Notes under the pieces: generated by a model
The model's input: the letters and a program-made list of their open reading frames with translations, nothing else
What the model was told of the DNA's origin: nothing
The model's database searches: none
Origin: Trueperaceae bacterium
Lineage (GTDB): Bacteria; Deinococcota; Deinococci; Deinococcales; Trueperaceae
Assembly (NCBI GenBank): GCA_965213925.1
Contig: OZ243927.1
Span: 992,001-1,056,000 of the forward strand
Length of the DNA: 64,000 nt
Direction of reading: 5' to 3'
In this document: one piece after another, positions 4,828-63,529 of the stretch
How the letters are laid out: every line of letters begins with the position of its first letter
Numbering within the stretch: the first letter of the stretch is position 1
Made by a program: the position numbers and the translations under genes

Positions 4828-5710
4828 ACCCCAATTCGGAAAAGGGAAATTCAAAGCTCAAATGCCCCTAAACGGCTGAGTTGGTAAGCGAGCAAGGTGG
4901 TGTAAACGTGCAGGATGCAGCCCACCGTCGAGCGGTAGGGTCTGTCAGAGAGTCCAAGTCTATCCAAGGACGAGAAGACCGACTCAACGATGCGGTGTCC
5001 TTGGTAAAGCCTCTGCTCACGCTTGGGCGGGGGTAGCTGGTTGCTGCGGCGCGGGGTTATAAGGTCAACCGCTTGGGAGGCAACGTCGGCTTTAAGCTCG
5101 GAGCTGATATAGCCTTTATCGGCGGTTACAATGGCGTAAGTGAGTTTGTCTAGTAGGCGAGGCGCGACCTTAACATCATGTTCGTTCGCGCCTCGCAGCA
5201 GTACCTCACAGAGTCTGCTTGTATCGTCCACACGCGCATGAAGCCGAAAGCCATAGAAGGTGGTGTTATGGACGTGGTCACGCCCATAACTGCCCGCAAG
5301 CTTGGTCCTTTTAGCACGGGCAAAATCTACTACTTCTAGTTTCTTCGAGTCGAGGTGCTGTTTCGTCGTGTTATGCCCGGTGCAAAGCTGTTTAACCGCG
5401 AGAATAATCTGTCCTATCAGGAGGCGCTTACGCTCACAAAACGTTGAGGGTACAGGTACGTCCACGCCGAACGATGCAGCAACTTCAAGCATCTTCCGGC
5501 TATAGCGAAAACTCGACAGCTTCTGATAGACCGCTAAGGCGACGATGAACGAGTCTGGAAAAACAGGAGCACGTCCTTGAGGGGCTTTTCTACGCTTCTT
5601 GAGGGGTAAACGTTCGACGGCTTGTATAATCTCTTCGAGGGTTGGGATTTTGCGCATACATCATTGCAACCCTCACTTCTCCCGCTGTCAAATCTTTTCC
5701 GAATTGGCGT
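4828..5710 (-). mobile_element. IS982-family insertion sequence (complete)
   Basis: 17-bp IRs ACCCCAATTCGGAAAAG (4828-4844) and CTTTTCCGAATTGGCGT (5694-5710), 16/17 match; 6-bp direct repeat TAAAAG at 4822-4827 and 5711-5716. Confidence 0.9.
4851..5657 (-). CDS. IS982-family DDE transposase
   Basis: LDS, FYGFRLH, EHD, ADKGY and R.IVESVFS motifs. Confidence 0.88.
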   Translation of the reverse strand: MRKIPTLEEIIQAVERLPLKKRRKAPQGRAPVFPDSFIVALAVYQKLSSFRYSRKMLEVAASFGVDVPVPSTFCERKRLLIGQIILAVKQLCTGHNTTKQHLDSKKLEVVDFARAKRTKLAGSYGRDHVHNTTFYGFRLHARVDDTSRLCEVLLRGANEHDVKVAPRLLDKLTYAIVTADKGYISSELKADVASQAVDLITPRRSNQLPPPKREQRLYQGHRIVESVFSSLDRLGLSDRPYRSTVGCILHVYTTLLAYQLSRLGAFEL

Positions 5711-14306: not shown

Positions 14307-14485
14307 GCTCGAATTTCCGCTCATACTACTCGAGTCCGCAGCGCACGTCCAGAAGGCACCTGCGCCCCCTTGTGTTTAGTCCGAAAAAGAGTGCTTTCAC
14401 CTCATTTATACTGCTACTCCTAGTACATTTGCCCTGTTCTCTCAGGAGTAGCATAAGGTCACTAAGTGCTTGTGGGGAGGGTGAC

Positions 14486-15673
14486 GTGACCAGGGAACAG
14501 GTTATAGAGGTGGCGACGAGGGTGAGCCGGCGGGCAGCGGACCTCCTAGATGAACGTGTTTTCGTCGTGGACCAGAGCGAGCGGGTGGTGGCGGCGAGCG
14601 AGCCAGGTTTCGTGGGCAAGGTGTTAGGAGACGCAGCCTCGCGCCCCTCCCAGCCGCTGCGCTTCAGCGCTTGGGAAGGGCGCGTGATCGTAGGCGCGCC
14701 TGCAACGTCAAGCCGTGAGCACGCCGCGCCTCCCCCTCGGCTCGTGCGCGGGGTGCTCGAGCTGATCATCAGCCAGATGACGCTCGAGGGCTTGCGCGGT
14801 CGCGACCTCCAGAACACGCTCGTGCACGACCTCTTGCGCGGGCACGTCTCGGACGAGGAGAGCATAAACCGCCAAGCGCGCATCCTGGGCATGGACCTCT
14901 CGCCGCCCCGCGCCGTTCTCCTTATCGGCGCAGAGGCGTATCTAGGCGCAAACGACGCGAGTAGGGCGAACGACATCATCGGCAGCGTCGTGCGCTTTTT
15001 CCACCTGCCGAACGACACCATCTGCGCTTACATCGGCGCGGGCGAGGTGGCGGTCCTCAAAGCGAGCGACGCGAAGAACCTGACGCCTTGGGCGCAGGTG
15101 GATGAAAAGGGCGACAAGGCGTCGGCCTGGGCTGACTTGGGCGCGCTCAAGCGGGCGGCGGCGGCGCTTATGGAGCGCTTGGCGGCAGATACGGGCGCGC
15201 GAGTGAGCGTCGGTATCGGGCGCTACCACCGGGGTCTCGCTGGGCTCGCGCACTCCTACGCGGATGCGAAAGCGGCGCTTTCTCTCGGTCGCCGCTTGGG
15301 TCAGAAGGGCGGCGTGCATTGCCTCGACTCGGTGGGCATTGCCGCCTTTATCGGCGTGGCGGACGAACGCACCAAAGCCGACCTCGCGACCTTTCTGCTG
15401 AGCCCTTTAGACGACGAGCCCGAGTTGCTGCGCACGCTGGCATGTTTGTTCGAACACGACTGTCAGCCGTCAGCGACTGCTAAAGTGCTGGGCGTCCACC
15501 GCAACACACTCAGCTACCGTTTAGAAAAGATCGCCTCGCTGACCGGCATGGACCCGAGGCGCTTCGACGACGCCGTGCAGATTCGCTTGGCGCTCGTCAT
15601 GAGGCAACTGCACAAAGGCGCGGAACAACGTTCGTCAAAAAAGACACGCCGTATCCGCGCCCTGCCGTGCTAG
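14486..15673 (+). CDS. CdaR/PucR-family transcriptional regulator
   Basis: GGDEF-like central region, C-terminal HTH (TAKVLGVHRNTLSYRLEKI); GTG after GGGGAGG. Confidence 0.85.
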   Translation: MTREQVIEVATRVSRRAADLLDERVFVVDQSERVVAASEPGFVGKVLGDAASRPSQPLRFSAWEGRVIVGAPATSSREHAAPPPRLVRGVLELIISQMTLEGLRGRDLQNTLVHDLLRGHVSDEESINRQARILGMDLSPPRAVLLIGAEAYLGANDASRANDIIGSVVRFFHLPNDTICAYIGAGEVAVLKASDAKNLTPWAQVDEKGDKASAWADLGALKRAAAALMERLAADTGARVSVGIGRYHRGLAGLAHSYADAKAALSLGRRLGQKGGVHCLDSVGIAAFIGVADERTKADLATFLLSPLDDEPELLRTLACLFEHDCQPSATAKVLGVHRNTLSYRLEKIASLTGMDPRRFDDAVQIRLALVMRQLHKGAEQRSSKKTRRIRALPC

Positions 15674-37354: not shown

Positions 37355-38440
37355 CTAGCTCGGTCTACAATCCTCGTGACTGACCTGCTGGGTTCTCAGC
37401 TTAGCCTCTCGTGTGGTCGCTCTCACCCGGTTACGCTGTTTATACTCGTACATCTCGCTGTCCGCTTTCTTGAGCAAGGCGCGGAGTGTGCTACCCGCTC
37501 GCGGAAACTGCGCGACGCCGATGCTCGCGTCTAGGTGCACCTCTTCGCCCTCGAGCCTAAAAGGGGCGGCCAAGCACGCAGCGTAACGCTCGGCGACTCG
37601 CTTGGCTCCGCCGCAACCATTATGCGCATAACTGCTAGGCTCATAACCGTGTGGGTGGACCTCGAGCAAACAGACAAATTCGTCGCCGCCGAGCCGCGCT
37701 AAGAGGTCGCTCTCGCGCGTCTGGTTCTTAAAACGCTCGGCTACCTTGATGAGAAGCGAGTCGCCCGCATCGTGACCAAGCGTGTCGTTGATCTCTTTGA
37801 AGCCGTTTAGGTCGAGGTAAAAGAGGTTCAGCTCGCGAGCGTGCCTTTTGGCTGAGGCGATCATCTGCGCGGCCCGCTCGAAAAAGGCGCGTCGGTTGGG
37901 CAGACCGGTCAGCGCGTCGGTGTAAGCCGCCCGCGCGATTTCTTGTTCGAAGCGTTTATGGCTAGTAACGTCGATATGCGAAATGACTGCGCCGCCGCTG
38001 TCTCCACCTAGTGGTTTAATATACATGACGAACCACCTTTCGCCCTCGCCTACGAAGTGGGAATACTCGAGCGTAAACTCCGCGCTCGAGCCCGCTAAAA
38101 CGTCGTGCAGACCTCTGCAAATCTGACCTAACCGAGACGCTCCCTCTAGCTCATGATGGTGCGCGTCTCCACATAGATGGAGGTAGTTTGCACCGCGCTC
38201 TGCGTAGAGGGAGGGATCATATTTAGCGAAGTGCTCCCACGCCTTGTTGGTCTCGACGATCACGCCGCTCGAATCAAGAATCGCCATCTGTTGCGGCGCG
38301 ACGTCAAACGCCCGAAGGTGAACGTTGGATAATGCGTTGGTGGGCACAGTGCCCCTCCTCCCTTTAGAGCCCGAAAAGAAAGCTGACGCAGTAGGCTCGC
38401 CCTGTCCTGTATGGACTAGCGGTTCTACGCTATCATTCAA
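37355..38440 (-). CDS. PAS-domain diguanylate cyclase
   Basis: PAS-like N-terminus; DALTGLPNR, DLNGFKEINDTLGH and RLGGDEF motifs. Confidence 0.9.
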   Translation of the reverse strand: MNDSVEPLVHTGQGEPTASAFFSGSKGRRGTVPTNALSNVHLRAFDVAPQQMAILDSSGVIVETNKAWEHFAKYDPSLYAERGANYLHLCGDAHHHELEGASRLGQICRGLHDVLAGSSAEFTLEYSHFVGEGERWFVMYIKPLGGDSGGAVISHIDVTSHKRFEQEIARAAYTDALTGLPNRRAFFERAAQMIASAKRHARELNLFYLDLNGFKEINDTLGHDAGDSLLIKVAERFKNQTRESDLLARLGGDEFVCLLEVHPHGYEPSSYAHNGCGGAKRVAERYAACLAAPFRLEGEEVHLDASIGVAQFPRAGSTLRALLKKADSEMYEYKQRNRVRATTREAKLRTQQVSHEDCRPS

Positions 38441-46853: not shown

Positions 46854-47405
46854 ATGAAATACGAACCGACCCCGGAAGTGAGGCGCAAGGCTGAGGCTGC
46901 TGGCATCGATTTAGACGCCCTCGAGCAGAGCGACCCGACCACCTACGCCATGCTGAACGCGCAGCGCGCCGTGCAGGTCTCGCCGCAGCTCAAAGAGGTT
47001 GCGGGAGAGGCGCTTTTCAGCACGTTTCCCGAGCGTCAGATTTTTGACATGCCGCAAAGTCCACCGGGAGATACCCGGCTCAACCTGCTCGTCTTTCCGC
47101 CCCTGAATGACGCTGAATGGGTACGTTTAGACGAAACGCTCGCCTCTCTAGCGACCCGCCTTCCCCTCGAGCACGCTTTCTACCGCGTCGTCAGCGACGC
47201 GGTAGGCGAACGCCGCGAGCTAGCCCTGCCCATTGCGCCGGGCAACTGGCGTGGGCAGGGCGGGGTCATGGTCGGCCCGTTTGCGAGCGACGCGGCCGCT
47301 AAAACCTGGGGTGACGCACATGTAGACGCCTCGAGCGGTCTAGTCAGCGATACCCTGCCCTACAGCGGCGCGTGGTTTTGTGACCTTTTCCGGGGCGACA
47401 CGTAA
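46854..47405 (+). CDS. hypothetical protein
   Basis: 183-aa ORF directly downstream of trmB with typical codon usage. Confidence 0.65.
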   Translation: MKYEPTPEVRRKAEAAGIDLDALEQSDPTTYAMLNAQRAVQVSPQLKEVAGEALFSTFPERQIFDMPQSPPGDTRLNLLVFPPLNDAEWVRLDETLASLATRLPLEHAFYRVVSDAVGERRELALPIAPGNWRGQGGVMVGPFASDAAAKTWGDAHVDASSGLVSDTLPYSGAWFCDLFRGDT

Positions 47406-47409
47406 CGGC

Positions 47410-47718
47410 TTAACTTAAAGAGGTCGCGACTTCGGCGTTCCCCAACCGCAAGTGTGTCCCGTCCTCTAGGGTGAGGTCGCCCTCCGCCGTGATGCCGCCA
47501 ATCACGATGGTGCCAGGTCGCACCTCTCCGCCCGTAAGCGTCGCGACTTTGTACGCGATAAAGTTGTCCCGGTAGATGAGCAGTTCGGTGCCGTCTTCGC
47601 AGTTCAAGCAGGTGGCTAGCTCGAGGCTTTCTTGTCCGACACTCTCCTGCCTGAGACTCTGTTTCTGTTCGGGTGAGGTGATGACGACGTAGCGTTTGTT
47701 GAGTTTATGATTGAGCAT
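47410..47718 (-). CDS. hypothetical protein
   Basis: 102-aa ORF with AAGGGGG RBS, divergent from the HD-GYP gene. Confidence 0.55.
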   Translation of the reverse strand: MLNHKLNKRYVVITSPEQKQSLRQESVGQESLELATCLNCEDGTELLIYRDNFIAYKVATLTGGEVRPGTIVIGGITAEGDLTLEDGTHLRLGNAEVATSLS

Positions 47719-48171
47719 ATAAACCCCCTTCAGGTTTTCGCAGTTTTATTCGGCATTTTATTAGCCGACAACGTTCCATTCGGCGTAACGCCGAGCATCT
47801 CCGTATCCCGGTATCGCTGCCCAACGCTGATGTGATGGAAGGTCTAGCTGGTTGCCGTAAGCGCTGCCCACGCTCTATGTCTAGAAGTTCACAGTACTCC
47901 AAAAAGAGCGCTGAGCGGGGTCATATGTCACGGTGTTTATACACAGCCTTATGAGAGGCTTGGGTAGGGGTGCAGTATTCTCTACTTTTACCGAACGAAG
48001 GGGAAGCTCCGCCCGACTTTTCCAGCAACTACCCACACGAACCCAAGCGTAAAGAGTTAAGTTGGTCACATTGAGCGCATTTGCGACTCAGGTCGCCCTT
48101 CACCCGTGCAATACTAGGGGGTGTTTCGCGCCAAGCTGCGGCTAACGACTTAGGTGAGGGGGTGAAGAGAA

Positions 48172-49095
48172 ATGAACGACGTGGACGAAGCTGCCTTACC
48201 GCAGGGGCTATCCCTCCGCAAGAAAGGGGAGAGCCTCGAGACGGTCTCCTCGAAAGCGATTGAGTTACAGCTTTTAGTGGCGAGTCAAGGCGTAGAGATT
48301 CTTGAAGGGCAACTTCATAAAGGTGAGCGTATAACCCTCATTCCCTCAGGTAAAGCGGTAGAAACGTACTATATTTTAGAAGGACAGTTACGTGGCGACG
48401 CAGCTTCCGGGTCTACGGTTGTCGGTGCGGGAGATTATCTCGTGACAGAGTCGCTAGAGACGTCCTATACCCTGCTCGCGCAAACCGACGTTCGCTTTCT
48501 CTATTTCACCTCAAAGCCCACCTTTCACGAAATAAGCGAAGAGCTTGGCGATCTGATGCAGCTCGCCGTCGAAGTCGAAGTTAAAGACGGCTACACGAGT
48601 GAGCATTGCAGGCGCTTACAGGTACTCTCTTACGCTGCGGGTCAAGAACTTGGTTTAGGGCAAGACAGACTCTATCTCTTGGATTACGGCGCGTATCTGC
48701 ACGACGTGGGCAAGGTCAAAGTGCCCGTCAATATTTTGCGTAAACCTTCCACCTTGACGCAAGCGGAGTGGACGCTCATGAAAAAGCATCCTACGTTCGG
48801 GCGCGAACTCCTCGAGAAAACCTACTTGAAAAGAGCCGGTATCATCGTCGAGCAACATCATGAGCGCTTAGACGGAAGCGGCTATCCCCACGCACTCTCT
48901 GGGGAGGACGTTCTGGTCGAGTCTTATATCGTCGCCGTCGCGGACGCCTACGACGCGATGACGACAGACCGCCCCTACCGCCGCGCTGCGCCGCCAGAGC
49001 ATGCGTTTGCCGAGCTTAGGAGATACGCCGGGATATACTATCCAAAAGAGGTCGTGGACGCCTTTATTTCGGTCGTGATGAGAAAAGCGCTTTAG
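48172..49095 (+). CDS. cupin-like N-terminal domain plus HD-GYP phosphodiesterase
   Basis: ETYYILEG...GDY cupin-like pattern; YT.EH, LHDVGK, HHERLDGSGYP and AVADAYDAMTTDRPYR. Confidence 0.88.
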   Translation: MNDVDEAALPQGLSLRKKGESLETVSSKAIELQLLVASQGVEILEGQLHKGERITLIPSGKAVETYYILEGQLRGDAASGSTVVGAGDYLVTESLETSYTLLAQTDVRFLYFTSKPTFHEISEELGDLMQLAVEVEVKDGYTSEHCRRLQVLSYAAGQELGLGQDRLYLLDYGAYLHDVGKVKVPVNILRKPSTLTQAEWTLMKKHPTFGRELLEKTYLKRAGIIVEQHHERLDGSGYPHALSGEDVLVESYIVAVADAYDAMTTDRPYRRAAPPEHAFAELRRYAGIYYPKEVVDAFISVVMRKAL

Positions 49096-49782
49096 TAGCG
49101 TTACCTAAAAATTTACGTGCCCGGCTGAAAATAGGTGAGCGAATGTTATCGCATCCGCAGTTTCGCACATTTTGCTGGCTAAGCGCTCGAGAAGGCACAA
49201 AGCGCAACGTTAATATTATTCCTAGTTCGCTCTATATTCGGCTTACCGACTTGAGACGTGGCAAATCACTACGCCAGAGCCAAAATGTAATTAGTATCAC
49301 AGCGTATGCGCGTACTTGTTTCAACTATTGAAATGATTTCCACAAACAGCATCAACCTATCTTCAAAAATAAAAAGATGAGAGCCGTTCGCGCGTTGAAA
49401 AACCCTTAATGTTCGTTCAGAACGAATAAGAAGAATTTCACGCACTATTAAAAAAGCTTCTATGAGTTTCTAGTGTGCCTGATATCACTTGTTCTCATGG
49501 TTGTGAGAATTTCACCTCTAAGTATTTCAATACCCATGATACGTTGTCTTTCGAGGTTGATAAGCCTCATCGGAAGCGACGACTTCTGCCCCGCAAGGAG
49601 CCTTTAGCTATCATGCCGTTATCAAACGCGCTGGCTCGATGACCAGATGCTACCTGCTGCTAAAGGCTCTTCTGGGCGCTTGGGACAGAAGAAGCTAGTA
49701 GCGCAACCGGCCGGGAAACTCTTCCGGACAACTTGAAAAGCTTCGGAAAACCGGAGCACGCCATATCAGGGAGGATATGAAA

Positions 49783-49914
49783 ATGAAAAAGTCACTTATT
49801 AAAGCGTTGGTTCTTACTCTTACTCTTACTGCGTTTGGTACGGTCTCGACGGCGAGCGCCGCCAAAGGCTCGGACAAGGCTCCGTCAGTTCAGAAGTTTA
49901 GAGTCAACCGCTAA
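49783..49914 (+). CDS. 43-aa secreted pre-peptide 1 (MKKSLIKALVLTLTLTAFGTVSTASA-AKGSDKAPSVQKFRVNR)
   Basis: Manual translation; GGGAGG RBS; Sec signal with A-S-A site; followed by a terminator; alternative ATG at 49777. Confidence 0.85.
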   Translation: MKKSLIKALVLTLTLTAFGTVSTASAAKGSDKAPSVQKFRVNR

Positions 49915-49933
49915 AGGTTAAAAGTTCACCAAT

Positions 49934-49969
49934 AAGCTCCTCTACAAAGATGTAGAGGAGCTTTCTTTT
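49934..49969 (+). terminator. terminator of pre-peptide 1
   Basis: AAGCTCCTCTACA-AAGA-TGTAGAGGAGCTT followed by TCTTTT. Confidence 0.85.
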
Positions 49970-50003
49970 GCCTATTTTTCGCTGTGAAGTTTTCCACATT
50001 GTA

Positions 50004-50033
50004 GTTGACGCTTCAAAGGTGAGCAGGTTAAAC
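50004..50033 (+). promoter_or_regulatory. putative promoter of pre-peptide 2
   Basis: TTGACG-18 nt-TAAACT. Confidence 0.5.
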
Positions 50034-50076
50034 TCGCTTGTCTGCAGACGAAATTTAGGGATAAAAGAGGGTGAAC

Positions 50077-50202
50077 ATGAAGAAACTCACAAGCCTAACG
50101 CTCGTTTTGGTACTAGCTATCTGTGGTTTATCTGTAGCGTCTGCTGGCTCCTCCACTTCGGATGGTGAACCGTCGGTTCAGAAGTACAGAGTCAACCGCT
50201 AA
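50077..50202 (+). CDS. 41-aa secreted pre-peptide 2 (MKKLTSLTLVLVLAICGLSVASA-GSSTSDGEPSVQKYRVNR)
   Basis: Manual translation; AGAGGG RBS; Sec signal with A-S-A site; C-terminus shared with peptide 1. Confidence 0.85.
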   Translation: MKKLTSLTLVLVLAICGLSVASAGSSTSDGEPSVQKYRVNR

Positions 50203-50221
50203 ATCATAAGAGATACGTCTG

Positions 50222-50253
50222 AGCGTCTCCGCGCGGAAGCGGAGGCGCTTTTT
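50222..50253 (+). terminator. terminator of pre-peptide 2
   Basis: AGCGTCTCCGC / GCGGAGGCGCT stem followed by a T-tract. Confidence 0.75.
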
Positions 50254-50265
50254 CATGTTCTAAGG

Positions 50266-50694
50266 CTAAAGGTCGCGCGCCAAGAAGCGAATCGCAGCCT
50301 CGTAACCGTAGATTCCCAACCCTGCAACCGTTCCTACACAAACCGCTGAGAGGTAGCTGTGGTGCCTGAACGCTTCCCTCGCGTGGACGTTGGAGATGTG
50401 GACCTCGACGGCGGGCGTAGGGATGCTAGCGACCGCGTCGCGTAGGGCGACGGAGGTGTGCGTAAGACCTCCAGGATTGATGACGACGCCTCGCACGTCC
50501 CCGCTGACGGTTTCGTGAAGCCAGTCGATGAGCTGACCCTCGTGGTTGCTTTGGCGGCACCTCGCGCTCGTCCCGACCTCCTCTGCCCAACGTTCACACC
50601 GCGTCTCTAGGTCTTTGAGCGTCGCGCTGCCGTACACGCCTGGCTCGCGCGTTCCTAAGAGGTTGAGGTTGGGGCCGTTGAGGACTAGAATCAT
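50266..50694 (-). CDS. aroQ: type II 3-dehydroquinate dehydratase
   Basis: LNGPNLNLLGTREP and EVHISN..REAFR motifs. Confidence 0.96.
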   Translation of the reverse strand: MILVLNGPNLNLLGTREPGVYGSATLKDLETRCERWAEEVGTSARCRQSNHEGQLIDWLHETVSGDVRGVVINPGGLTHTSVALRDAVASIPTPAVEVHISNVHAREAFRHHSYLSAVCVGTVAGLGIYGYEAAIRFLARDL

Positions 50695-61159: not shown

Positions 61160-63529
61160 CTAAGGTATCGCTTTGGCGAGGTCGTTAAAGCGCACGTGCG
61201 CGTTGTGAAACTGAAGCTCTACCGTGCCGACGGGTCCGTTGCGCTGCTTGCCAATAATAATCTCGGCGATACCCTGTTTTTCGCTGTGGGGATCGTAGTA
61301 TTCGTCGCGGTAGATGAACATGACTAGATCTGCGTCCTGCTCAATTGCTCCGCTTTCGCGCAAATCCGAGAGCATAGGGCGTTTGTTGGGGCGGCTCTCG
61401 ACCGCCCTCGAGAGCTGCGAGAGAACAATCACGGGAATATCGAGTTCGCGTGCTAGAAGCTTGAGTCCCCGCGAAATCGTCGAAATCTCTTGCTGCCGGT
61501 TTTCGCCCAGACCCCCACGCCCACTGCCGCTCATAAGCTGCAAGTAGTCGATGATGATGAGCCCTAGATCGTGCTCCGCCATGAGCCTGCGGGCACGGCT
61601 GCGCAGTTCCATCACGGTCATGTCAGCGGCGTCGTCAATGAAGATATTCGCCTCGGAAATTTTGCCCGCCGTATCTGCGAGTCGCTGAAAATCGCGCTCG
61701 GAGAGTTGACCGTTGCGCACACGGCTCATGTCCACGCGGGCCTCACTGCAGAGCATCCGGGTGACAAGTTGAACGGCGGACATCTCGAGGTTGAAAATGC
61801 CCACCGTTTTGCCTTCGCGCAGGGCGACGTTTTGACCAATTGTCAGGGCAAAGGCGGTGTTATGCGTAACCGTCATGTCCTCTAATAAGAAAAGTCCGTC
61901 ACCATGTAAGGTGAAGCCGTAGTAGTCATCCACCTTATCCGGCTCAACTGAGATACCCGTAACTTGCCAATCCTTGCGGTCTGACCAACTCGCCGCTTTC
62001 TTACGTGGCACACGCACCGGAATCTCATCTACGTTGCCGTTAAAACGCACGCGGTAGACCTCGCACTGATAGGGTTCTACGTTCTCTCGTATCAACGTTG
62101 CTGTTTTGCTGTTCAAAGAGGTGCGGTAGCCCAGCGAATCGCAGAGGTACTTAATTTGCTTGGCGAGAGGCTCTAGCTTCGTCGTAATCTCATAAGGTCC
62201 GTTTTGACCCGAGAGGTAATGCCCATCTGAATCTATCAAACCTGCGAGAAGCTCTAACCTACAGCGTTTTGAATTGTGAAGATATACATCAGGAATATGT
62301 TTATGTCCAAGTAAACCAAGCGAGGCGAGCTGACCCTGTAAAGATAATGCTGCATCCTCCGCCGAGCCCCCACGCTGACCTCTTGTGATGGCGTAGCTCG
62401 GACAGCGCTCCCCTTGCGCGTCCACGCTTACGCGCAGCTCGAGACGCTCAGCATAACTATAGAGATAATCTACAACCTCTTGGTCCTGCATTGTGATTCT
62501 AACGCTATTTGTTGCGCCGTCGCCTAGCCATAAGCCGAGAAAATAAGGCTCGACAGGAACAGGTACTTCCAAAAGCTCAATCCCGACCTTATAGCCTTTG
62601 AAGTTACTTCTGAATTTATCGCTCTTGCTGAGCCATTCCTTTATAGACAGGTTGACGACCTCGCCCTTGTTCGGGTTGCGGCTGCGTTTGAGTGACAAGA
62701 TGTGACTCTTGTTGACTCGGTAATCCATCCCGTGACGCTGCCGCACCCACACCATCTGCTCGCGACCTCTTGCTAAAGAGGTCACATAACGCGGGCACGA
62801 ATCCGGTCCCATCAGCACGTCACCGACGCGCACGTCTTCGACCTTTTTAAGCGAACCGTCAAACATCACCACGCGCGTGCCTTTGCCTAAACACTTACCC
62901 ATAGCCGGACGCGCCGCCAACACGTTCAGTGTGCTTGGTTGCAAGCCCGCCGTCAAAATATCGAGTTCCTTGAAGCCTGTGCGCAAACCTGAAATCGGGT
63001 CGGGGTTATTGAACAGCTCGTTGATGTAGTTAAAGGTATCCGTGACGAGCGTGCCCATGCCCTCGAAAGCGTGGGAGCGTTTGCTGCTCGAGAGTTCGAA
63101 GATACCCGCCTCGGCTTTATCCAAAACTTGCTCGATGGGGAGCGCTTGGTCGTACGCAGTCTGCATAATCTGACCGCTCGCCGCAATGAGGTCGCGCAGA
63201 ATCGCCTTTTCGGAGACGATTTTCGCGTAGCTCTCGGCGTAGGCGGCAGTCGGGACCTCGTCCGCCAAGCCGATGAGGTACGGCACGCTGCCCACGGCTT
63301 CTAGCTCGCCCGTCTGCCTAAGCTCCTCGGTGAGCGTGACCAAGTCCATCGGCTCGCTGCGGCGAAAGAGGCGCTCGCAGGCGCGGTAAATCTTGCGGTG
63401 GCTCTCCTTATAGAAGTGCTCGGGCGTGATGGAGCCCTCTAACGCCCCGAACACCTCGTTGTCGATGAGAATACTTCCTAAAACGCTCTTCTCGGCTTCT
63501 AAGTTATGAGGGGCAGTGCGCATCTCCAC
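61160..63529 (-). CDS. dnaB: replicative DNA helicase with intein
   Basis: PHNLEAE, AARPAMGK/TAF, IDYLQL and DLRESGAIEQDAD motifs. Confidence 0.95.
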   Translation of the reverse strand: MEMRTAPHNLEAEKSVLGSILIDNEVFGALEGSITPEHFYKESHRKIYRACERLFRRSEPMDLVTLTEELRQTGELEAVGSVPYLIGLADEVPTAAYAESYAKIVSEKAILRDLIAASGQIMQTAYDQALPIEQVLDKAEAGIFELSSSKRSHAFEGMGTLVTDTFNYINELFNNPDPISGLRTGFKELDILTAGLQPSTLNVLAARPAMGKCLGKGTRVVMFDGSLKKVEDVRVGDVLMGPDSCPRYVTSLARGREQMVWVRQRHGMDYRVNKSHILSLKRSRNPNKGEVVNLSIKEWLSKSDKFRSNFKGYKVGIELLEVPVPVEPYFLGLWLGDGATNSVRITMQDQEVVDYLYSYAERLELRVSVDAQGERCPSYAITRGQRGGSAEDAALSLQGQLASLGLLGHKHIPDVYLHNSKRCRLELLAGLIDSDGHYLSGQNGPYEITTKLEPLAKQIKYLCDSLGYRTSLNSKTATLIRENVEPYQCEVYRVRFNGNVDEIPVRVPRKKAASWSDRKDWQVTGISVEPDKVDDYYGFTLHGDGLFLLEDMTVTHNTAFALTIGQNVALREGKTVGIFNLEMSAVQLVTRMLCSEARVDMSRVRNGQLSERDFQRLADTAGKISEANIFIDDAADMTVMELRSRARRLMAEHDLGLIIIDYLQLMSGSGRGGLGENRQQEISTISRGLKLLARELDIPVIVLSQLSRAVESRPNKRPMLSDLRESGAIEQDADLVMFIYRDEYYDPHSEKQGIAEIIIGKQRNGPVGTVELQFHNAHVRFNDLAKAIP
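61859..62893 (-). mobile_element. 345-aa intein with LAGLIDADG homing endonuclease in the DnaB P-loop
   Basis: Starts CLGKGT after GK, ends VTHN before T; YFLGLWLGDG and LLAGLIDSDG motifs. Confidence 0.93.

Follow-up and report, generated by a model that had tools for sequence, protein, structure and literature searches.

In a 64,000-nucleotide (nt) stretch of the genome of a Trueperaceae bacterium (GenBank GCA_965213925.1, contig OZ243927.1, positions 992,001 to 1,056,000; hereafter the window, in whose numbering coordinates are given unless a contig or locus is named), we identified a compact locus in which the gene for a predicted cupin-HD-GYP phosphodiesterase (48172–49095, + strand) is followed by two genes for small, putatively exported peptides, with a candidate cyclic di-GMP class II (c-di-GMP-II) riboswitch ahead of the first (49563–49720, +). 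The domains of the enzyme, the architecture of the riboswitch and the recurrence of this three-part arrangement elsewhere were observed directly. The best explanation, to which we give a probability of roughly 55%, is that the cassette works as a second-messenger feedback unit in which enzyme, riboswitch and secreted output are linked, i.e. a phosphodiesterase coupled to a c-di-GMP-gated exported peptide. Peptide gene 1 would be read from a transcript that starts with the riboswitch, and the cellular c-di-GMP level, lowered by the neighbouring enzyme, would set the amount of peptide 1 made. Since a c-di-GMP riboswitch precedes peptide gene 1, the substrate of the enzyme would control the peptide, which places the enzyme upstream of the peptide. 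This predicted route, from c-di-GMP through the riboswitch to peptide 1, is the only regulatory arrow visible in the sequence.

The first gene, found in the open reading frame (ORF) list, encodes a protein of 307 amino acids (aa) that shows a Pfam HD_5 match (E = 9.8e-28) at residues 136–290 (48577–49041, +) and a further match to HD; its NCBIfam phosphodiesterase and HDIG matches were all sub-threshold. When 64 full-length homologues were aligned, H145, R148, H177, D178, G180, K181, H206, H229, E231, G235 and G237 were invariant, and H230, Y238 and P239 nearly so. Given this near-complete conservation, the HD (177–178, with H206 further on), HHE (229–231) and GYP (within GSGYP, 235–239) motifs are intact. 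An AlphaFold2 model built from the same alignment (predicted local distance difference test, pLDDT, 93.5; predicted template-modelling score, pTM, 0.86) has an N-terminal beta-barrel (strands 23–113) followed by a helical domain. Foldseek matched the helical half to the HD-GYP structures 4mcw, 4r8z and 9rbz (E 6e-13 to 3.5e-12 against 4mcw and 9rbz; template-modelling (TM) scores of 0.75–0.78 on the target for 4r8z and 9rbz). The barrel matched cupins, namely ectoine synthase, TM1459, KdgF and the Cupin_2 domain of an XRE regulator, with TM scores of 0.6–0.74 on the target.

The barrel (approximately residues 20–115; 48229–48516, +) has the double-stranded beta-helix of the cupin fold and lacks the metal-binding His/Glu set of cupin motifs 1 and 2. 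Its Pfam Cupin_2 score is sub-threshold (15.4 bits; cut-off 27.2), and two of four scanned homologues reached that cut-off (L081, 29.2 bits; L078, 27.9 bits). Only L34, E64, G71 and G87 are invariant in the cupin part. Across the 64 homologues, the N-terminal domain has no conserved histidine, and E64-X6-G71 is retained; at what we take to be the two histidine positions of motif 1, this protein has P58 and G60. No signal peptide or transmembrane segment was seen when the 307-aa sequence was read by eye. We infer a cytoplasmic c-di-GMP phosphodiesterase in which the HD-GYP domain stands behind a non-metal cupin barrel. In agreement, the initial annotation had described a cytoplasmic protein with an intact HD-GYP domain and a cupin without its usual metal-binding histidines. 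Solved HD-GYP enzymes (PmGH, 4mcw; PA4781, 4r8z; DvhD, 9rbz) have the same catalytic fold and metal-ligand motifs and carry N-terminal receiver, PAS or other domains, whereas the N-terminal domain here is a histidine-less cupin. A literature search for both terms found no paper describing an HD-GYP/cupin fusion.

Downstream of the enzyme gene lie two small ORFs (49777–49914 and 50071–50202), the peptide genes of the initial annotation, and each has a Shine-Dalgarno sequence before it and a terminator hairpin after it. Shine-Dalgarno spacing favours ATG starts at 49783 and 50077, and with these starts all members of the peptide family begin MKK. Peptide gene 1 (49783–49914, +) then specifies 43 aa from the second ATG of an ORF open from 49777, between the Shine-Dalgarno GGGAGGA (49769–49775, +) and an intrinsic terminator (49934–49973, +). 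Peptide gene 2 (50077–50202, +) specifies 41 aa from an ATG within an ORF listed from GTG 50071 and is followed by a second intrinsic terminator (50221–50255, +). Both peptides, whose signal peptides were read by eye, have a hydrophobic core, an A-x-A site and a polar tail of ∼17–18 residues (∼17 in peptide 1), which ends KFRVNR in peptide 1 and KYRVNR in peptide 2. The peptide family has an invariant proline and a conserved tail; the extreme C-terminus is the best-conserved part, and the peptides differ among paralogous cassettes. These features suggest that the two genes encode Sec-exported peptides made as precursors of 41–43 aa, with export and processing both predicted. Ahead of peptide gene 2, the palindrome TGTGA-N6-CCACA (49983–49998, on neither strand in particular), which we take to resemble a CRP site, is nearly invariant in the other two genomes of the genus (G001 and G002; the source genome is G000) and is followed by a promoter-like site belonging to this gene. 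Two other identities were rejected. A ribosomally synthesised and post-translationally modified peptide precursor had as its sole support an NCBIfam match over the signal peptide (E 0.039), with no modifying enzyme nearby. As for a pilin, no prepilin-type N-terminus was seen by eye, and pilMNOQ lie 3.5 kb off, behind aro genes.

The element ahead of peptide gene 1 is a probable c-di-GMP-II riboswitch that the initial annotation had overlooked. At gathering thresholds, Rfam reported tRNA alone across the window. In an E-value scan, c-di-GMP-II-GAG (RF03169) matched positions 49563–49720 (+) with 28.2 bits against a cut-off of 40 (E 0.005–0.013), skipping 85 nt in the P2 loop, and an RF01786 match inside the element scored 21.7 bits against a cut-off of 53.5. 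The scores are low because a 74-nt hairpin (49597–49670, +) with a 12-bp stem and a loop of ∼50 nt, recognised by alignment and pair counting, is inserted in the P2 loop. Shorter insertions were found at the same site in G001, G002 and another source-genome copy (L011). In the source genome, RF01786 has eight copies above its cut-off and 14 matches at E ≤ 1, including the 21.7-bit match in the window.

The structure was assessed over an alignment of 15 riboswitch copies, comprising that in the window, five other peptide-linked copies and nine others from the same genome. Pairing was counted for a hand-written structure (P1, P2a, P2b, the pseudoknot and the inserted hairpin), with slid partners as the control. 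Pairs formed in 88.5% of cells compared with 37–43% for the slid partners, and both sides had changed in 21/36 pairs; a misalignment of one column at the 5′ end of the G054 row slightly lowers the pair counts. P1, P2a and P2b are common to the window element and the alignment, with support from covariation. The pseudoknot between the P2 loop and J3 has five pairs, 100% paired, of which three covary, and reads GCGCU with AGCGC in the window. In its J3 stretch, the window element does not differ from canonical copies with scores of 63–76 bits, and its core nucleotides are of the standard, not the GAG, type, with the GAG-defining positions taken from the model consensus. The element shares with c-di-GMP-II riboswitches (RF01786, clan CL00127) the P1 and P2 helices, the pseudoknot, the J3 stretch and a position in the 5′ leader, but differs from canonical copies in its 74-nt P2-loop hairpin, a P1 of ∼4 bp, a score below the cut-offs and a predicted 43-aa secreted peptide as its target. 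A block upstream of it (49420–49562, +) is conserved in alignments of the three genomes of the genus and probably holds the promoter.

Folding gave a post-aptamer hairpin (49711–49727, +), and a compensatory change in G002 is consistent with it. Its 5′ arm is the 3′ strand of P1 (CCGG), and its 3′ arm partly coincides with a sequence that is complementary to the Shine-Dalgarno. When the 3′ strand of P1 was withheld during folding, this anti-Shine-Dalgarno paired with the Shine-Dalgarno only in that state in two of four leaders (G001 peptide 1 and G002 peptide 3); in the G000 peptide 3 leader it paired in both states. The leaders in G005 and G054 have an intrinsic terminator before the Shine-Dalgarno sequence, and no convincing anti-terminator was found in them. 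The sign of the switch leans towards OFF, with c-di-GMP shutting off translation. An OFF switch would match a small-protein family in Clostridioides difficile that is described as repressed by c-di-GMP through class-I switches (PMC13724677).

Further c-di-GMP-II-related sequence was noted in the source genome: a 69-nt match to the 3′ half of the aptamer (G000:C1:305105-305173), closely like the 3′ half in the window, is located upstream of a cytochrome-c-like ORF, and no obvious 5′ half was seen within 260 nt of it. Ahead of the riboswitch, at ∼49502–49516, is a TGTGA...TCACC element, looser than the palindrome before peptide gene 2. An engineered c-di-GMP-II variant, as reported in PMC13715770, has no bearing on the window element.

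The pairing of enzyme and secreted product was then examined in 128 Trueperaceae genomes, a set that includes one genome flagged as unpublished (G110), on which no claim rests. A profile of the peptides gave full-length matches in five genomes from two genera, and weaker matches elsewhere covered the signal peptide only. The cupin domain itself is present in 34/128 genomes and 14/36 genera. The five genomes with peptides hold 21 cupin-HD-GYP loci, of which eight have a downstream peptide gene, four a full-length secreted partner of 106–118 aa directly downstream, and nine neither. Seven of the eight peptide loci were flagged by script; the eighth is G002_2, whose peptide ends YRVNR. A riboswitch precedes the peptide in 7/8 of these loci (28.2, 69.1, 43.8, 30.9, 47.5, 64.4 and 57.5 bits), the 30.9-bit copy being complete but with a long insertion, and the exception is the G002 orthologue of the window locus, where the aptamer is degenerate. 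The 69.1-bit copy is a canonical riboswitch in the source genome, 51 nt ahead of a 41-aa peptide paralogue, and just upstream of it is a cupin-HD-GYP paralogue with 60% identity over the N-terminal 144 aa. In a quick maximum-likelihood tree, the 21 Trueperaceae enzymes formed one clade (support 98), within which the eight peptide-type enzymes grouped together (90) as sister (80) to the four full-partner enzymes (99).

Two side observations concern these paralogues. Cupin-HD-GYP paralogues 3 and 4 of G000 are identical to proteins on small G002 contigs (C6 and C5), which could reflect recent transfer, a mobile element or cross-contamination. In G001, a further peptide-family ORF (L229 3746–3904, +) ends NPFRFDN, intermediate between partner and peptide tails; it is oriented divergently to the third cupin-HD-GYP paralogue, lacks a riboswitch match and is without a counterpart in G000.

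Outside Trueperaceae, the closest full-length relatives of the enzyme are from Bacillota. A search with the N-terminal domain (a five-row alignment) gave 71 loci, one of them from Trueperaceae and all but one from Bacillota, Thermotogota or Haloplasma; the protein of a record labelled Pseudomonas grouped with a Cytobacillus sequence at zero branch length in the tree. A regular expression for small ORFs with a signal peptide and, at the end, (I/V)DP and a short tail found a partner beside the enzyme gene in 35/71 loci. A hidden Markov model (HMM) built from those 35 partners detected an adjacent partner gene in 67/71 loci, missing the Trueperaceae locus, L185, L197 and L203. Clostridia-type loci carry the partner upstream, Bacillus-type and Trueperaceae loci carry it downstream, and at L158 it is convergent. 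Small secreted products adjoin cupin-HD-GYP homologues in 12/21 Trueperaceae loci and 67/70 loci outside the family. Because the pairing recurs in this way, a rarity of such neighbours, which the initial annotation had named as fatal to its proposal, was not observed. Flanks beyond the pair are not conserved, since the 111 ORFs around 42 loci were heterogeneous, with an Opp-type permease at one locus and GGDEF proteins at four.

Riboswitches recur in this wider set as well. A class-I c-di-GMP riboswitch or its GGC variant was found above Rfam gathering cut-offs in 16/60 loci tested, always before the first gene of the pair. The scan was made in three batches (4/20, 12/20 and 0/20), and seven further loci lay outside it. 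Such riboswitches were also found at four loci (L077, L078, L079 and L081), three of which coincide in place with L158, L193 and L210. At L226, two class-I matches in tandem (1786–1870 and 1960–2044) lie close to where the partner ORF (1943–2398 as called) begins; because the second match overlaps this ORF, the real start of the ORF is probably further downstream.

The partner family matched no Pfam or NCBIfam model, and an Atlas search with the partner returned unnamed or mislabelled clusters only. Its members carry implausible database names such as '8-amino-7-oxononanoate synthase' and 'MarR ... regulator of motility'. The best-conserved part of the family alignment is a C-terminal hairpin in which Asp-Pro is invariant; the short tail after it, of mostly 4–7 residues, is unstructured in a partner model of moderate quality (pLDDT 74.5, pTM 0.45).

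Several features connect the Trueperaceae peptides with these partners. The third source-genome paralogue is followed by a 118-aa lipoprotein that matched the Bacillota partner HMM (E 4.6e-13) and ends PFRFNN, and its orthologues end PFRFSD, PFRFNN and PFRFNE. The tail motif [FY][RE][VF][ND][RNCDE] ends only 6/314,020 stop-terminated frames genome-wide, namely the three peptides, the 118-aa partner and two others, and four of the six are directly downstream of cupin-HD-GYP genes. The peptides share with the partners both this C-terminal tail and adjacency to the enzyme gene; profile matches did not extend beyond the signal peptide. Homology between the peptide and partner tails is likely but unproven, and the peptides appear to be cut-down members of the partner family, reduced in this genus to a signal peptide and a tail. 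Six-frame HMM searches of 47301–50300 and of the orthologous regions in G001 and G002 detected no leftover of a full-length partner gene in the spacer of 680 nt between the enzyme gene and peptide gene 1.

A number of results weigh against the feedback unit or the ancestry that we propose for its peptide. The window aptamer scores below the cut-offs of both Rfam families and has a P1 of only ∼4 bp, its leader, in the minimum-energy fold, pairs the anti-Shine-Dalgarno with the Shine-Dalgarno in neither state, and peptide gene 2 has no riboswitch. In G002, the orthologous aptamer has lost pseudoknot complementarity and gave no Rfam match at E ≤ 0.1, being recognisable but degenerate; therefore this riboswitch lineage can decay. 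Nine of the 21 Trueperaceae paralogue loci have no partner, and the batch with 0/20 riboswitches consisted of Bacillus-type or Haloplasma loci, so neither component is obligatory. With respect to the tails, the motif was defined after the sequences had been seen, hmmsearch with the partner HMM reached the peptides at E ∼1e-3 through the signal peptide only, and hhalign of the peptide and partner profiles aligned columns 3–28 only, which are the signal peptides. Since the profiles align signal peptides only, tail homology rests on the five-residue motif.

These results also bear on other explanations of the locus. The peptides may be ordinary c-di-GMP-controlled surface or extracellular products that share a regulon with an enzyme gene merely co-inherited beside them, with no specific interplay. 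Other c-di-GMP-II riboswitches in the source genome do precede assorted lipoproteins and secreted proteins, and the islet that holds the phosphodiesterase and peptide genes (47700–50260) has a G+C content of ∼0.50 compared with ∼0.60 in its flanks, consistent with a transferred block. We nevertheless consider this explanation unlikely: the pairing has outlasted changes in gene order, replacement of one riboswitch class by another and intragenomic duplication, for which selection on the pair is an easier explanation than hitch-hiking. It is highly improbable that the small ORFs are untranslated, with the riboswitch controlling a non-coding transcript or being a decaying relic. Decay would fit the degenerate aptamer in G002, but MKK starts, hydrophobic cores, A-x-A sites, Shine-Dalgarno sequences, the invariant proline and the conserved tail are all kept in 11 copies from five genomes and two genera (a twelfth copy, L049 in G001, is doubtful).

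Control could also run in the opposite direction, as in the peptide-controlled, Rap-Phr-like switch that the initial annotation had proposed on the basis of adjacency only. The functional link between enzyme and secreted product now extends to paralogous loci, a second genus and other phyla and is well supported; the proposed direction of control found no direct support, with no tetratricopeptide repeat (TPR) receptor and an Opp-type permease at 1/42 loci. In such a signal loop, the exported peptide tail, or the partner tail after Asp-Pro, would be released, re-imported and bound by the cupin to set phosphodiesterase activity, and the riboswitch would close the loop. We regard this as distinctly unlikely, as the enzyme is cytoplasmic and its product exported, no importer, processing protease or other common gene occurs among the 111 flanking ORFs of 42 loci beyond that single permease, and 9/21 Trueperaceae paralogues have no partner. 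On the other hand, a signal loop would account for a secreted product beside the cupin-HD-GYP gene in 67/71 loci and 12/21 Trueperaceae loci, and for conservation that peaks at the C-terminus of the peptides and at the Asp-Pro hairpin before the short tail of the partners. The tail is unstructured in the partner model, loss of the cupin metal site is consistent with a ligand-sensing or regulatory role, and the peptides differ between paralogous cassettes, as expected of cognate pairs. In its broadest form, cupin-HD-GYP and its secreted neighbour would be an unrecognised autocrine or quorum cassette of Bacillota, Thermotogota and Trueperaceae, with the exported tail as signal, the metal-free cupin as the cytoplasmic receptor that sets c-di-GMP hydrolysis, and independently recruited class-I or class-II riboswitches as feedback on signal production; this we put forward as a long shot.

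The proposed feedback unit resembles several known systems in part. In Rap-Phr and other RRNPP systems, a small signal-peptide gene lies beside the gene for a cytoplasmic regulator, and most of the conservation falls at the C-terminal end of the peptide. Here too, a small gene beside the enzyme gene specifies a signal peptide and a C-terminus that is conserved. Unlike in Rap-Phr, a riboswitch would gate the peptide, and no TPR receptor was found in the 307-aa protein or the window ORFs of at least 170 aa; among the 46 such ORFs that do not overlap, none encodes a histidine kinase or TPR protein, as the initial annotation had stated.

The CD1980.2 family of C. difficile, as described in PMC13724677, consists of multicopy 58-aa proteins encoded behind class-I c-di-GMP riboswitches and repressed by c-di-GMP through premature termination. 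These proteins are membrane-associated through a C-terminal hydrophobic helix and are reported to have no homologues outside the species (PMC13724677). Compared by description, the two families are alike in being very small multicopy proteins whose genes follow c-di-GMP riboswitches, but the Trueperaceae peptides carry a signal peptide at the N-terminus and are accompanied by a class-II switch and a cupin-HD-GYP gene, and the consulted parts of the CD1980.2 paper describe no pairing with a phosphodiesterase (PMC13724677). In Vibrio cholerae, DbfQ is presented as a small periplasmic modulator of biofilm signalling that acts with DbfRS (PMC12714742). It is likewise a small exported protein encoded beside a gene for biofilm-lifestyle signalling, but the sensor there, a membrane kinase, has a periplasmic face (PMC12714742), whereas the neighbour in the window is a predicted soluble cytoplasmic enzyme.

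Literature searches for the arrangement found no description of a cupin-HD-GYP protein with a secreted partner. The compact cassette, in which cupin-HD-GYP is joined by a small secreted protein and often by a c-di-GMP riboswitch, extends over at least three phyla. In Bacillota the homologous cassettes use class-I riboswitches and in Trueperaceae class-II, which points to selection for c-di-GMP control of the secreted product. The Trueperaceae peptides offer a minimal system for asking what the partner tail does and whether it feeds back on the enzyme. As the large-insert riboswitch escapes the curated cut-offs of Rfam, similar hidden copies may be common.

Elsewhere in the window, a PAS-GGDEF diguanylate cyclase gene (37355–38437, −) lies ∼10 kb upstream of the phosphodiesterase gene. 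A 102-aa ORF (47410–47718, −) that diverges from the enzyme gene has no Pfam or NCBIfam match; it occupies the same place in G001 and G002 and is missing at the paralogous loci. A PucR-type regulator with a GGDEF-like domain is encoded at 14372–15670. The window also holds an insertion sequence-type DDE transposase gene (4851–5654, −) and a DnaB helicase gene (61160–63526, −) that is split by an intein with Hint and LAGLIDADG homing-endonuclease domains.

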